Positions 4,171-9,561 of a stretch of 49,477 nt of DNA are shown here, piece by piece. A model generated the notes under the pieces. That model was not told the origin of the DNA, made no database searches, and worked only from the letters and a program-made list of their open reading frames with translations. The position numbers and the translations under genes were made by a program. Location of the stretch: the IMG/VR virus record IMGVR_UViG_2703718798_000005, one strand, 5' to 3'. The number at the start of each line of letters is the position of its first letter. The stretch's first letter is position 1. Origin of the DNA: a virus. Lineage: Duplodnaviria > Heunggongvirae > Uroviricota > Caudoviricetes.

Positions 4171-4401
4171 ATGGCGAGAAATGAAGTTAAGCCTGATTGG
4201 CATCCTCAAAGAATCTTGGGGGAAGTCAGAGCCAGAGAAGGAAGTATGAGGGCGCTGGCCCGTAAAGCTGGTGTAGGCCAGAACAACCTGTATAACGCGG
4301 TATACCGCCATGTTCCCAAGTATGAGGGAATTATTGCGGAATGCCTGGGTGTTCCACCCGAGGAGATTTGGCCCAGCCGCTACATTCGTAAGGTCGCGTA
4401 A
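4171..4401 (+). CDS. ner: Ner-like DNA-binding early regulator
   Basis: 76 aa; DWHPQRI ... IWPSRY pattern recalled from Mu Ner-family proteins; first gene of the rightward early operon. Confidence 0.75.
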   Translation: MARNEVKPDWHPQRILGEVRAREGSMRALARKAGVGQNNLYNAVYRHVPKYEGIIAECLGVPPEEIWPSRYIRKVA

Positions 4402-4403
4402 TT

Positions 4404-6491
4404 ATGTTTGCTTCAGTTAAAGAGCTGGTTGGATTACCGGGAATGCCGGGAACGGAGCAAGGCGTCCGCTATTCAATCAGGAAGTATGCAACCAGCGAAA
4501 CCAGCAGACGCCGCCAGGAAGGCACTAAAGGTTTTGAATACAGCATCGACTGTTTACCTGAAGTGACGCAGCAGGCATTACGTGAACGCTACGCCCTGCA
4601 ACTGATGACGCAAAAAGCCGACGAATCACCGGCTCCGGTGGTGACAAAGGCCAGACGCTCGCCTGCAGTGGTTGATGCGGTGGAGGCATATCGCGGATCA
4701 CCACAACTGATGGTCGAACGCCTTAATGCCCTGACTGAAAACCAGCGCCAGGTGGCTGATGCACGAATCGCGATCGTCAGCGAAGTGATGAAAGTCGCGC
4801 AACAACCCGGTTTCAGCTGCGCGAAGGCTATCCGGTTTATCGTTGACAACCTGGCACGTTCGCAACTGGACGAGCGCATTGTGGCAATGGTTGAGACGGC
4901 GAACGCCAAAAAGGGAAACAGCCGCGCGTTGAGTGAAATCACGCTGAAACGCTGGATTGCAGCCTTTAACAAGGCGCAGAACGCCGCCGAACGCCTGCTT
5001 TTGCTGGCACCGGGTAAGCGCCAGGAAATAAAAGCCGAAGATATTAACTGGCTGCCCGAGTTTCTGGCGCAGTATCGCCAGTCAAACGGTCGACCAATGA
5101 CCGAGGCTTACGAGGATTTTGTCGCTGAATGGCAGCACCGGCACGCTGATGAGCCTTATATGCTCGATATCATGCCCTCTTATGACACCATTCGCCGCGC
5201 AATGAAGAAACTGCCGGAAGTGGTGAAACAGAAAGGCCGGGTGACCGGCAGTGAATACCGTCAGCTTGAGGGATTCACGCGCCGCGACTGGTCCAGAATG
5301 CCGGTGAATTATGTCTGGATTGGTGACGGTCACGGCATGAAGCTGAAATGCGCGCACCCGGTTCACGGGCGGCCATTTGCACCGGAAGTAACCTTTGTTA
5401 TCGATGGCGGCACGCGCTTTGTGGTGGGCTGGAGCCTTGACCTGGCTGAAAATGTTTTCGCCGTAGCGGGTGCCATACAGCACGGCATTCGCCATCACGG
5501 CAAACCGTTTCTGTATTACTCGGATAACGGTTCCGGGGAAACCGCCGACATCCTGGATAAAGAAGTTGTGGGGATCCTGCCGCGACTGGGGATTAATCAC
5601 CCAACCGGGATTGCCGGTAATCCGCAGGGGCGAGGCATTATCGAACGGCTTAACCGCACATTACCGATGCGCATAGCCCGTAAATACCGCACCTATTTCG
5701 GGAAAGGTGCAGATCGCGAGACGTTACGCAAAACCAACCGCGATTTACGCTCGGCATTCACTGCCCTGCAACAGGACAAACGGCTGAACGCCCGGCAGCA
5801 GTCAGCGATGCGTGATTTACCGTCCTGGTCTGAACTGATTGATGCCATTCGTGATGGTGTTGAGTGGTACAACAACCGGCCGCACGATGAATTACCCATG
5901 AAGCCGAACGGTAAACATTACAGCCCGGCGGAGTTCAGAAAAAAACGCCTGGCGGAAGAGGACACGGAAATTGAATGGCTGTCCGATGTTGAGCTGCGGG
6001 ATATGTTCCGGCCGATGGTGAAGCGCCCTGTAAGACGCTGTGAAATACGCTGGCTGAATAATATTTACTACGCGCCGGAGCTGCGTGACGAGCATGGCCG
6101 CAAGGTGCTTATCAGCTATGACATTCATGATGCTGAGCGAATTACCGTACGCAGACTGGATGGCAGCGTGATTTGCGAGGCGGTATGGGACGGCAATAAA
6201 CGCGAAGCCTTCCCGGTCAGCGCGGAATACTACAAACAGCAGCAACGCCTTAAAGGCATGCGTAAACGCGCAGAGGAAAAAATCCGTGATGCCGAGGATG
6301 AGGTGGTCAACGTGCTGGAGCACAAACCGCAGGAGCCCTGGCTGGAAAACATCTATCGCCCGGTAGGTAATACGGTGGCCGTTCAGCAACCTGCCGTTGA
6401 TGATGAACCTGATGAAGAATACGAGCGTAATTTCCAGCGGGGATTGCAGCTGCTGGAAGCGAAATTAAAAGAAAATGACCCGCTGGCCTGA
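4404..6491 (+). CDS. Mu-type DDE transposase (MuA-like)
   Basis: 695 aa; candidate DDE triad in WIGDGHGMK, YYSDNGSGE and RGIIERLNRT contexts; follows ner as in Mu. Confidence 0.9.
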   Translation: MFASVKELVGLPGMPGTEQGVRYSIRKYATSETSRRRQEGTKGFEYSIDCLPEVTQQALRERYALQLMTQKADESPAPVVTKARRSPAVVDAVEAYRGSPQLMVERLNALTENQRQVADARIAIVSEVMKVAQQPGFSCAKAIRFIVDNLARSQLDERIVAMVETANAKKGNSRALSEITLKRWIAAFNKAQNAAERLLLLAPGKRQEIKAEDINWLPEFLAQYRQSNGRPMTEAYEDFVAEWQHRHADEPYMLDIMPSYDTIRRAMKKLPEVVKQKGRVTGSEYRQLEGFTRRDWSRMPVNYVWIGDGHGMKLKCAHPVHGRPFAPEVTFVIDGGTRFVVGWSLDLAENVFAVAGAIQHGIRHHGKPFLYYSDNGSGETADILDKEVVGILPRLGINHPTGIAGNPQGRGIIERLNRTLPMRIARKYRTYFGKGADRETLRKTNRDLRSAFTALQQDKRLNARQQSAMRDLPSWSELIDAIRDGVEWYNNRPHDELPMKPNGKHYSPAEFRKKRLAEEDTEIEWLSDVELRDMFRPMVKRPVRRCEIRWLNNIYYAPELRDEHGRKVLISYDIHDAERITVRRLDGSVICEAVWDGNKREAFPVSAEYYKQQQRLKGMRKRAEEKIRDAEDEVVNVLEHKPQEPWLENIYRPVGNTVAVQQPAVDDEPDEEYERNFQRGLQLLEAKLKENDPLA

Positions 6492-6566: not shown

Positions 6567-7499
6567 ATGACCGATATTAACGATGTAATCAAGACCATTG
6601 ATGAACTTATTGATGGCGGCGTACTGACACAGTATGCCATCGCCAGAGAGGCGGGAATTTCCGACGGCACATTATCGGCTTTCCGTAAGGGAAAATATAA
6701 AGGCGATAACGCTGCTGTGGCTGCTTCCCTGCGTTCCTGGTATGAGAACTGGAATAAACAAAGCGCACTGCCGGAACCGCCGCAGTTTGTGGAAACGCAG
6801 ACAGTCCAGGAGCTGCGCGCGCTGTTTCAGGCGGTTCGCCTGATGGGCTGTATTAACGTCATTGTGGGCGTGCCGGGTGTGGGTAAAACGGCCACCGCCC
6901 GTAATTACTGCCAGGAGCAACCAAACACCTGGATGATTACCCTGTCACCCGCGCACTCCAGCGTCACGGAGTGTTTGCTGGAGCTGGCCGATGCGCTGGG
7001 GATTGATTACACCCGCGCGAACAAAGGGGCATTATCCCGCGCCATCCGCCGCCGTCTGATGGGAACGCGTGGACTGGTGATTGTGGATGAGGCGGATCAT
7101 CTTGGTATTGACGGTCTGGAGCAACTCCGGGCAATTCAGGACGCCACGGGGATCGGGATGGTGCTTATTGGTAACCCGCGCGGACTGTTTAAAGGTGGAC
7201 GCCGCGCCTTTGATGATTTATCGCGCCTGTTCAGCCGTCTTGCCCGTACAAAACAACTTCGCAAGGCCAAAAAGGCAGATGTGCTGGCCATTGCCAGGGC
7301 ATGGGGTATCAGTGGTGAGGCAGAGCTGGTCGTGATGCAGGCTATCGCTGAAAAGCCCGGTGCGTTACGTGTTCTTACACATACGCTTAACCAGGCGTGG
7401 CTCACAGCCAGCGGTGAAGGCGCGGCGCTGACAGAAAAACATATTAATGCGGCCTTTAAAGAGGTTTATACCAACCCTGAATTACTCTCACAGGTGTGA
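6567..7499 (+). CDS. MuB-like ATP-dependent target DNA activator
   Basis: 310 aa; Walker A GVPGVGKT; directly downstream of the transposase. Confidence 0.85.
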   Translation: MTDINDVIKTIDELIDGGVLTQYAIAREAGISDGTLSAFRKGKYKGDNAAVAASLRSWYENWNKQSALPEPPQFVETQTVQELRALFQAVRLMGCINVIVGVPGVGKTATARNYCQEQPNTWMITLSPAHSSVTECLLELADALGIDYTRANKGALSRAIRRRLMGTRGLVIVDEADHLGIDGLEQLRAIQDATGIGMVLIGNPRGLFKGGRRAFDDLSRLFSRLARTKQLRKAKKADVLAIARAWGISGEAELVVMQAIAEKPGALRVLTHTLNQAWLTASGEGAALTEKHINAAFKEVYTNPELLSQV

Positions 7500-7723
7500 T
7501 TATGGCTGCATTTAATATTCCTGATATTTACGGACGCTTTTACCTGGTGAATGTCGATAACGTGAAAGTGATTTCACTGGCCGAAAATAAAGAATGTGGT
7601 GATTTACTTTTTGAATTTAATGACCGCACACGAATGGTGATATCTGCCGGACTTGATCGCGAAGGTGCGACAGACGTTTACAGCGGAATATGCCGTTCTG
7701 TTGGTGCAAAACAAGTCAGATAA
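7496..7723 (+). CDS. Small early protein, unknown function (occupies the position of Mu kil)
   Basis: 75 aa ORF translationally coupled to B; function assigned by position only. Confidence 0.4.
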   Translation: MIMAAFNIPDIYGRFYLVNVDNVKVISLAENKECGDLLFEFNDRTRMVISAGLDREGATDVYSGICRSVGAKQVR

Positions 7724-7735
7724 ACGAGGTGTTAT

Positions 7736-8155
7736 ATGAATACGCAGATACAGCAGGAAATCAATGTTCTCCACAGTTTTCGTGCGTTTAACAACAATGA
7801 CTGTGAGGTTCGTGATTATATCTTTGAATTGATGAACGGTGACGGTGTGTGTTTTCTGTTTATCGACCTGTATCTATGGTATGCAGACCAGCAGTGTGAA
7901 TCTGTCCGGCAGCGTTTTTATGTTGGATACTTTAACCATCATGTCTGGGAAAGCCTGCGCTTTGGTTTTCTGATCCAGGGGGATTATCGCCAGGGGGGGC
8001 GACACGGTTACTCCATCCTTCGGGCAATCATGCGTGGCGAAACCCGAAAAATTCCGGGGATGGGTGAGGTTGATCGGAGCCTCCTGCTGGAACTGGCTGC
8101 ATCGCGCATGAATCCATTACTGATACAACCGGAGTTCACCTATGAATTTGTTTGA
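7736..8155 (+). CDS. Hypothetical early protein
   Basis: 139 aa ORF with RBS (GAGG) 7 nt upstream; no recognisable motif. Confidence 0.4.
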   Translation: MNTQIQQEINVLHSFRAFNNNDCEVRDYIFELMNGDGVCFLFIDLYLWYADQQCESVRQRFYVGYFNHHVWESLRFGFLIQGDYRQGGRHGYSILRAIMRGETRKIPGMGEVDRSLLLELAASRMNPLLIQPEFTYEFV

Positions 8156-8372
8156 TTCACTGAATAACGCCCGTCGCCTGACCGAGCTTGCCGGTGCGGT
8201 ACTGGAGCGCAGTAAACGCTACCCGCAACGCTTTGCACTGAAAACCACGCCGCCGGTAAATAAGGTTCAGGGGGGGGGAAAGGAAATTGAAATCACCGTT
8301 AAGACCAACGGCCTGCGCCGCCGTGTGAAGGCCACCCGCATCAGCGGTTGCACGGTTTACTGGGAAGTATGA
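8142..8372 (+). CDS. Hypothetical early protein
   Basis: 76 aa basic ORF overlapping the preceding stop. Confidence 0.35.
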   Translation: MNLFDSLNNARRLTELAGAVLERSKRYPQRFALKTTPPVNKVQGGGKEIEITVKTNGLRRRVKATRISGCTVYWEV

Positions 8373-8446
8373 AGTTACTTCATGGTTCGGCTCTGTCATC
8401 AGGTCAGGCGCCGGGTCAGTTATCCGAACAAAACGAGGACCAGAGG

Positions 8447-8722
8447 ATGAGTAAAGTTGTTCGCATTATTTTCGAATACAGGGAGAACGTTATCCGTAAA
8501 AACGCTGATGGAAGCACGCACATGGGGGTAAGTCTGGATATACGTTCAACCGGAATAGCAAAGCAGAAGGATGGTAGCCCCGCCATGATTTTTGGGGTGG
8601 TTATGCTCGCAGAAAGCAGAAACTTCGCAGAGCTTGTGGCAATGAAAGCCAGTGCATTCATGAAAGACAGGGGTATGGCTTCCGGGGTTATTAACGGTAA
8701 TGAATTTAATCAGCAGGGGTAA
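8447..8722 (+). CDS. Hypothetical early protein, paralog A of a tandem pair
   Basis: Start moved to the internal ATG at 8447 (RBS GAGGAC); MSKVVRIIFEYRENV resembles the next ORF's MSKVRVIFEFEHVS. Confidence 0.4.
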   Translation: MSKVVRIIFEYRENVIRKNADGSTHMGVSLDIRSTGIAKQKDGSPAMIFGVVMLAESRNFAELVAMKASAFMKDRGMASGVINGNEFNQQG

Positions 8723-8726
8723 TTCC

Positions 8727-9020
8727 ATGAGCAAAGTACGCGTTATTTTTGAATTTGAGCATGTTTCGCATGACGAAAAGCTGGCAGGCAATGACTGTGT
8801 TGAAGTGCATGAAAAGATTGGAGTGGATGTGAAAACAGAACGTGATACGGAGAACAGCCCGACGTCACTCTGTGACGTTTATGCAAGTATTCTCCAGTAT
8901 CACAGTCCTGCAATTATTCAGCTTCTCTCAGCGGAATTTCAGGCATCTGTACAGGCTTTTGGGGCGGATGCCATCATTAAACGCCACCGTGTGCATAAAG
9001 CATCAGGCGCACTGCAATAA
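8727..9020 (+). CDS. Hypothetical early protein, paralog B of a tandem pair
   Basis: Start moved to the ATG at 8727; N-terminal similarity to the preceding ORF. Confidence 0.4.
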   Translation: MSKVRVIFEFEHVSHDEKLAGNDCVEVHEKIGVDVKTERDTENSPTSLCDVYASILQYHSPAIIQLLSAEFQASVQAFGADAIIKRHRVHKASGALQ

Positions 9021-9030
9021 GGAAAACAAA

Positions 9031-9561
9031 ATGGTTAAACGTGTTACAAAATTAAAGGCCGCAGCCGAGGCCGCACCACAGACCCGCGAAGAGGTCAGCC
9101 GCGATATCCGCACCCTGGGCGATATTCAGCGAGAGGCGCTGCGCCTGGAAACGGCAATGAATGATGAAGTGGCAGAAATCACCGCCCGTTATACGCCGCA
9201 GATTGAAAACCTTAAAAAAGAAATCAAAGTGCTTTTTAAGGGGATTCATGACTGGTGTAAAACCAACCGCAATGAGCTGACGAACGGCGGCGAAACCAAA
9301 ACTGCCAATCTGACCACCGGAACGGTGTCATGGCGGCTGGGAAATCCATCATGCAGCGTCAGTCGTGATGTGGAAGGTGTGATTGAAATGCTGCGTCGTA
9401 TGGGGCTTGAGCGCTTCATCCGCACGAAAGAGGAAGTGAATAAGCAAGCTGTCCTGGCGGAGCCGGATGCGGTGAAAGGGGTTGCTGGTATTAAGGTGAA
9501 TAAAGGTGCTGAAAGTTTTCATGTCGAGCCTTTTGAACAGGACGCCGGACTGAATAAATAA
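9031..9561 (+). CDS. gam: Gam-like host-nuclease inhibitor (DNA end-binding)
   Basis: Start at internal ATG 9031; DIRTLGDIQREALRLETAMNDEVAEI and ELTNGGETKTANLTTGTVSWR match the Mu Gam family as recalled. Confidence 0.75.
   Translation: MVKRVTKLKAAAEAAPQTREEVSRDIRTLGDIQREALRLETAMNDEVAEITARYTPQIENLKKEIKVLFKGIHDWCKTNRNELTNGGETKTANLTTGTVSWRLGNPSCSVSRDVEGVIEMLRRMGLERFIRTKEEVNKQAVLAEPDAVKGVAGIKVNKGAESFHVEPFEQDAGLNK

Follow-up and report, generated by a model that had tools for sequence, protein, structure and literature searches.

Two adjacent early genes of a Mu-like Escherichia coli prophage as putative deep paralogs in the Mu gp7 (Gnarl2) family

Two small genes lie side by side in the early region of a Mu-like transposable prophage of Escherichia coli, and the proteins that they encode begin in a very similar way. 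An earlier note, made from the DNA sequence without database searches, read them as the outcome of a local duplication followed by divergence. This locus raises the question of whether the two proteins are homologous along their whole length and, if so, whether the pair arose where it is now found; a related question is what such a pair might do in the host cell.

The window, that is, the whole stretch of 49,477 nucleotides that was analysed (IMG/VR record IMGVR_UViG_2703718798_000005), contains the prophage, and the two genes, here called ORF1 and ORF2, occupy the kil-gam interval of its early operon. Upstream of this interval, MuB (6567-7499; Pfam Phage-MuB_C and AAA_22) is followed by a 75-aa ORF (7496-7723), a 139-aa ORF (7736-8155) with weak similarity to Mu gp8, and kil (76 aa; 8142..8372, plus strand), which matches phrog_2679 'Kil' with an E-value of 6.8e-38. 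Between kil and ORF1 is a 74-nt leader (8373..8446, plus strand) with a GAGG 5' of the ORF1 ATG; the content of this slot is variable in related prophages. ORF1 (8447..8722, plus strand) encodes a basic protein of 91 aa (pI 9.6) that belongs to subfamily phrog_4107 and begins MSKVVRIIFEYRENV..., and ORF2 (8727..9020, plus strand) encodes an acidic protein of 97 aa (pI 5.8) that belongs to subfamily phrog_2230, represents allele type 'a', and begins MSKVRVIFEFEHVS... The coordinates and N-termini given for the two ORFs in the earlier note are exact. The pair lies directly upstream of gam (176 aa; 9031..9561, plus strand), the gene for a host-nuclease inhibitor (PF07352, E = 2.6e-39) that is 55% identical to Mu Gam. 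The ORF1 stop is separated from the ORF2 start by 4 nt, and the ORF2 stop from the gam start by 10 nt. Homologs of Mu gp11 and gp12 are located further downstream of gam.

On the plus strand, zero matches to promoter-like or terminator-like sites were found between 7400 and 9800. Since no such site occurs in this interval and the gaps are short, ORF1 and ORF2 probably belong to a long early transcript; this placement draws on what is known of the Mu early operon (PMC3325207). The two would thus be co-transcribed early genes, probably with translational coupling.

The surroundings of the pair show some further peculiarities. The 139-aa ORF, which overlaps kil by 14 nt, resembles Mu gp8 at 30% over 76 aa (E = 3e-4), and it is missing from some members of the window's clade. 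In Mu, gp8 (L001 2063-2482) lies downstream of gp7, whereas its counterpart in the window lies upstream of kil, and therefore the early region has been rearranged with respect to Mu. At the other end of the interval, the gam frame is open back to 8842 (8842-9561) and thus reaches into the 3' half of ORF2. Among the database 'homologs' of ORF2, several (P0047, P0048, P0057, P0059) are frameshifted into the gam frame, and these are probably sequencing errors or pseudogenes.

ORF1 and ORF2 are real genes under purifying selection. The dN/dS ratios among close relatives are 0.30 for ORF1, 0.41 for ORF2 of type a and 0.22 for type b, compared with 0.10 for gam. ORF1 matches phrog_4107 with an E-value of 4.9e-52 and the superfamily HMM with 1e-19, and ORF2 matches phrog_2230 with 2.4e-37 and the superfamily HMM with 5e-24. 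Both genes are called in RefSeq, with lengths of 90 and 97 aa and the label of hypothetical proteins, and the homologs of ORF1, of 90-91 aa, are likewise annotated 'hypothetical protein'. For ORF1 we preferred the start at 8447, which is supported by the family-wide N-terminus and by the RefSeq calls of 90-91 aa, and rejected the longer frames that begin at 8348 or 8369. The net charges are +2.6 for ORF1 and -4.0 for ORF2; the members of the family described below are mostly acidic, in contrast to ORF1. A transmembrane peptide like Iap of Pseudomonas phage D3 was also considered and rejected, because the maximum hydropathy over a 19-residue window is 1.0-1.2 in the two proteins and no stretch could span a membrane.

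An identical ORF1 protein, encoded by near-identical DNA, is present in E. coli. Among 5426 complete E. coli genomes, 228 contain ORF1 and 232 contain ORF2 (about 4%), O157:H7 strains being among them. Pfam, NCBIfam and PADLOC scans gave no match for either protein. A tblastn search of 50,697 phage records returned only two records of Stx phages with an inserted Mu-like element and missed Mu itself, and word-indexed homolog searches found nothing beyond close E. coli relatives.

When the two proteins are compared directly, the similarity is slight. The BLASTP alignment spans 74 aa with 20% identity (E = 0.007). When significance was judged by shuffling, with Smith-Waterman alignment, the full proteins scored z = 4.1 (p = 0.003), and after removal of the first ~10 residues the score fell to z = 0.66 (p = 0.25). 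The pairwise significance thus comes from the first ~10 residues (MSKV.R.IFE), and the "further similarity apparent on reading" of which the earlier note spoke is, in a pairwise comparison, at the level of chance. Profiles built from the close relatives of each gene, all of which are from E. coli and at least 60% identical, behave in the same way: hhalign gave a probability of 59-89% over the N-terminal 32-46 columns only, and the probability of 89% obtained with the N-terminus dropped to 0.4% without it. The likeness was noticed at the N-terminus because no other part of the family is conserved as strongly as the N-terminal strand. This family-wide conservation, together with synonymous differences between the 5' ends, led us to reject recent gene conversion as the source of the likeness.

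To find relatives at intermediate distances, we assembled a set of 112 loci, anchored on Gam and drawn from genomes and viral contigs, and searched the plus-strand ORFs upstream of gam with the HMMs of both families. The ORF1 HMM detected a 91-aa protein of locus L106 (E = 1.2e-6), and the ORF2 HMM an 89-aa 'MAKVIFEF' protein that is found at many Mu/D108-like loci (E = 8e-6). Iterated HMMs started from either ORF reached one common set of 81-83 ORFs that contains the respective other ORF as well as Mu gp7, which was first crossed at an E-value of 3e-4 to 9e-4 and afterwards matched at about 1e-17. In addition, an exhaustive HMM search with the joint alignment against 1.84 billion representative proteins returned 41 matches at E <= 1e-3, so the family is a small one, and contributed diverse members of 78-100 aa. 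Two of the 41 matches, P0122 (710 aa) and P0147 (430 aa), are long repeat proteins that score through many short repeats and are apparent false positives.

With profiles enriched in this way, the ORF1 side and the ORF2 side were aligned by hhalign with a probability of 98.7% (E = 1.8e-16, 78 columns); after the first 12 residues of every sequence had been removed, the probability was still 98.1% (E = 6.4e-14, 59 columns). The Mu gp7 clade was aligned with the ORF1-side profile at 96.4% (E = 1.2e-9) and with the ORF2-side profile at 92.0% (E = 6.7e-7). The same connection can be followed as a chain of BLAST matches, from ORF1 to P0130 (E = 2.5e-4; 27%, 78 aa) and from P0130 to ORF2b, the type b form of ORF2 (E = 8.7e-13), with further links between ORF1 and L106 (2e-6), L106 and P0130 (8e-11), and Mu gp7 and P0134 (1e-8). 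Bridges also exist among the PHROG profiles: the L106 type matches both phrog_2230 and phrog_4107, and P0134 matches both phrog_2230 and phrog_10252. Taken by itself, the pairwise alignment proposed in the earlier note as a check confines the similarity to the N-terminus, an outcome that the note had named as a refutation, but the intermediates reveal homology over the full length.

The full-length alignment of the family is colinear. It consists of a conserved strand, M-[AS]-K-V-I-F-E-F, a variable hairpin, a loop that often reads G-P-x-D, and a long helix with a near-invariant Gly; the near-invariant residues are the I, F and E of strand 1 and G76. A C-terminal His is frequent in the family (...KH, ...IH, ...TH, ...AH), and both ORF1 (...NQQG) and ORF2 (...GALQ) are without it. 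Profile and transitive evidence supports the view that ORF1 and ORF2 are deep paralogs with about 20% identity, a link that runs through intermediates and through small, shallow alignments, the direct similarity beyond the N-terminus being not significant. By their profiles, both are members of an enterobacterial family, that of Mu gp7/E6 (Gnarl2), which comprises phrog_10252, phrog_2230 and phrog_4107. They share with it the profile homology to Mu gp7, a single domain of ~80-100 aa with the conserved N-terminal strand and a central helix that ends in the conserved Gly, and a location in the early semi-essential region between kil and gam, or the gene that stands in for gam. All members of the family are annotated as hypothetical, and they are spread over three PHROGs that have no function assigned.

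AlphaFold2 models are in agreement with this relationship. The ORF1 model (pLDDT 79) has strands at residues 6-18 and 24-35 and a helix at 45-74, and the ORF2 model (pLDDT 85) has strands at 4-21 and 24-39 and a helix at 48-77. The order of elements, a beta-hairpin followed by a long helix, is identical; note that one joint alignment stands behind both models, so that the agreement is supportive and not independent evidence. Each protein is thus predicted to be small and soluble, with an N-terminal beta-hairpin and then a long helix. Foldseek searches of both models against BFVD and of the ORF2 model against PDB gave nothing below E = 0.06, the top PDB matches for ORF2 being trivial long hairpins of pore-forming toxins, and a profile search of PDB sequences gave no match.

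The copy number of the family was surveyed with HMMs in six frames in the window and 117 loci (118 sources in total). The family is present in 62 sources, with one copy in 36 and two copies in 26. Every two-copy source (26/26) belongs to the window's clade, in which Gam is at least 93% identical, and the window itself has exactly two; the copy-number survey that the earlier note called for thus shows a two-copy state confined to this clade (26/62) and one copy elsewhere. The single copy of Mu, of D108-like prophages and of other Mu-like prophages of enterobacteria is located downstream of kil, directly or after gp6. The family is absent at the Gam loci of the sampled non-enterobacterial hosts (Xenorhabdus, Gilliamella, Pseudomonas and others).

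The interval is mosaic even among close relatives. Near-identical ORF1 genes are paired with either of two ORF2 alleles, a or b, whose proteins are about 57% identical, which points to recombination inside the pair. The two allele types are seen in L035, L037, L043, L050 and L054-L057, about 330 nt upstream of gam. In O157-type relatives, the gap between kil and the ORF1 homolog holds an additional gene of 93 aa with the annotation 'host nuclease inhibitor protein' (L116 1223-1504, E. coli CV261). Where the window has its 74-nt gap, L114 has, between kil and the family gene, an unrelated 90-aa gene of phrog_1518 ('host nuclease inhibitor'); in both L114 and L115 a single family gene follows the unrelated 90-aa gene. 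In these two loci, a 212-aa DUF3164 protein (4303-4941) is found at the gam position, straight after the family gene, while the flanking kil, DUF5420, gp11 and gp12 genes are conserved. Another relative, L054 (3597-3989; Gam 94% identical), contains an ORF2b-type gene alone, with the leader of ORF1 fused exactly at its ATG; this one-gene state either is ancestral or arose when a deletion joined the similar 5' ends. In L117 (1826-3244; E. coli 23CRST049), an element of the IS66 family lies straight after the ORF1 homolog, at the place expected for ORF2 and gam.

As to the origin of the pair, the model closest to the earlier note, in which a gene of this phage lineage was recently duplicated in tandem and the copies then diverged very fast, agrees with two adjacent genes of similar length on the same strand, with a two-copy state limited to one clade, and with the MSKV start and the strand-1 Arg, which are exclusive to ORF1 and ORF2 (the relatives have MAKV or MVKV). 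However, neither copy has the other as its closest relative. The nearest relatives of ORF2 are single-copy genes of other Mu-like prophages (P0128, 34% identity, E = 2.6e-10; for ORF2b, P0130, 37%), and those of ORF1 outside its clade are the single-copy genes of the L106/L058 type (E = 1e-6 to 2e-6, the latter for L106), whereas ORF1 and ORF2 score 20% identity and E = 0.23 in the same nearest-neighbour BLAST. A neighbour-joining tree, calculated without bootstrap, likewise groups the ORF2 clade with the MSNK group of proteins and leaves ORF1 outside, and dN/dS values of 0.3-0.4 inside the clade bear no signature of runaway divergence. Since each copy is closer to single-copy genes elsewhere than to its neighbour, a recent local duplication is unlikely, and we consider this model highly doubtful; the paralogy that the note proposed is supported by the profile and transitive evidence, and the recent local event is not. 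The opposite view, that ORF1 and ORF2 are not homologous and owe their N-terminal likeness to convergence or to a constraint on translation initiation, could appeal to the loss of the pairwise signal without the first ~10 residues and to the clade-only profiles, which match at the N-terminus alone. It is scarcely credible in the face of the N-terminus-trimmed profiles with intermediates, the shared length, order of secondary-structure elements and genomic slot, and the joining of independent PHROG profiles via the L106 type. The pair of deep paralogs is then either an old duplication, older than these lineages, that was kept in one clade or two alleles of a single accessory slot that were stacked by recombination between Mu-like phages.

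The placement of the pair in this family gives a first indication of function, because one member has been studied. Mu E6/Mup07 (NP_050611.1; NC_000929 4784-5047) is the gene that Silas and co-workers named 'gnarl2' (orf63) in their screens of accessory genes (PMC12373910; bioRxiv 10.1101/2023.04.06.535777), and it is the Mu gene that our profiles recruit (L001 1785-2048). When gnarl2 was expressed in wild E. coli, the O-antigen bands of ECOR1 and ECOR22 were shifted downward, and infection by T5 increased 1e5-1e6 fold (PMC12373910); transposon disruption of O-antigen genes phenocopies gnarl2 (PMC12373910; bioRxiv 10.1101/2023.04.06.535777). The O-antigen phenotype comes from heterologous expression and is specific to the host strain, and a direct target of Gnarl2 was not found, AP-MS having given no clear partner (PMC12373910).

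The resemblance of the pair to Mu gp7 is considerable in organisation and low in sequence. The Mu protein has 87 aa, compared with 91 and 97 aa, and its gene also lies in the early semi-essential region with kil upstream and gam downstream; the alignment is colinear through the N-terminal strand, variable hairpin, loop, long helix and conserved Gly. The differences are that the two ORFs share less than 20% identity with gp7 and have no significant match to it in direct BLAST, that Mu has one copy and the window's phage two, that ORF1 is basic, that both ORFs lack the C-terminal His, and that gp8 and gp9 lie between gp7 and gam in Mu, whereas ORF2 adjoins gam in the window. In addition, a phenotype is known for gp7 alone, while ORF1 and ORF2 are known from their sequences. 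Nearer to ORF2 than any other proteins are two groups of phrog_2230: the 89-aa 'MAKVIFEF' proteins of D108/Mu-like prophages in E. coli, Salmonella, Yersinia and Cronobacter (27% identity to ORF2 for P0060, and 34% to ORF2b), and the 'MSNKAQVIFTFE' MSNK group of 93-98 aa (28-34% to ORF2, 37% to ORF2b). Both groups are likewise encoded downstream of kil, but they are single-copy, and all of them are annotated as hypothetical. Nearest to ORF1 outside its clade are the 91-aa proteins of the L106/L058 type (MVKVEFIFTS...), which bridge phrog_4107 and phrog_2230 and differ from ORF1 in being single-copy and acidic. Possible functional analogues are Gnarl1, Gnarl3 and Iap of Pseudomonas phage D3, which are small, non-enzymatic phage proteins that alter the O-antigen, in other phages and other genomic contexts. 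A sequence relationship between these three and ORF1 or ORF2 is not expected. GalU is described as the protein to which Gnarl3 binds, and the O-antigen polymerase as the enzyme that Iap blocks (PMC12373910).

Taken as a whole, the explanation that we find rather probable is that the locus contains two early genes of the Mu gp7/Gnarl2 family that are deep paralogs, and not recent duplicates, and that act in a Gnarl2-like manner. By analogy with Gnarl2, each protein would be a non-enzymatic binder of a host protein, presumably one of envelope biogenesis, and once the prophage is induced or a cell is infected the binding would interfere with the assembly of O-antigen/LPS or with a different envelope pathway; two diverged copies might then bring more host variants within reach. 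The function proposed here is carried over from Gnarl2, whose phenotype may not transfer at an identity below 20%. It is plausible, as the earlier note suggested, that the genes are versions of an inhibitor adapted to different host targets: the family includes Gnarl2 with its host-strain-specific O-antigen phenotype, and this specificity, the variable hairpin and the shuffling of alleles would fit two copies with different specificities.

Different roles for the pair must be weighed against this explanation. The family might act elsewhere than at the cell surface, for example in counter-defence against intracellular immunity, in the modulation of transposition or replication, or in the toxicity of the semi-essential region, so that the O-antigen effect of Gnarl2 would be indirect. 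The neighbouring genes are host-takeover genes (kil and gam, and a 'host nuclease inhibitor' in relatives), deletion of the Mu semi-essential region relieves host killing (PMC3325207), gnarl2 is among the genes that are conditionally lethal in some hosts (bioRxiv 10.1101/2023.04.06.535777), and the AP-MS result mentioned above, with no clear partner, could be understood in the same way. Nevertheless, the sole experimental phenotype in the family is an LPS band shift with sensitisation to T5, phenocopied by disruption of O-antigen genes, and the scans with PADLOC, Pfam and NCBIfam gave no match, so that we regard a role away from the surface as somewhat unlikely. Less likely still is the case that basic ORF1 and acidic ORF2 are subunits of one hetero-oligomeric effector and form a single working unit: their opposite net charges, a 4-nt spacing that is compatible with coupled translation, near-constant co-occurrence in E. 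coli genomes (228 and 232), and the bare hairpin-plus-helix shape, which would usually be expected to oligomerise, all agree with it, but single copies are the rule elsewhere, Mu gp7 alone yields a phenotype (PMC12373910), L054 has ORF2b only, and one ORF1 is combined with ORF2a or ORF2b even though these are merely 57% identical. Also unlikely in our estimation, but attractive, is a broader form of the Gnarl2-like explanation, in which the kil-gam interval would be a hot spot that swaps Gnarl2-type alleles, stacked in one E. coli clade including O157:H7 prophages; each allele would recognise a different variant of the host O-antigen or envelope, or the basic and acidic copies would hetero-oligomerise with a new specificity. 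If this were true, the pair would extend the range of serotypes open to a transposable prophage.

In conclusion, the pair is a two-copy variant of a known, barely characterised family of accessory genes, that of Mu E6/Gnarl2, and the observation from which this analysis started is real, although it is weaker on its face than was stated. The link to Mu E6/Gnarl2 provides a testable function for two genes that about 4% of the complete E. coli genomes contain, those of O157:H7 and other Shiga-toxin strains among them. Should the copies have different host specificities, they would offer a natural pair with which to map the binding partners of Gnarl2-type proteins, and could reveal in what way the O-antigen of a host is remodelled by its prophage; otherwise, they would be ordinary mosaic accessory genes of a phage early region.
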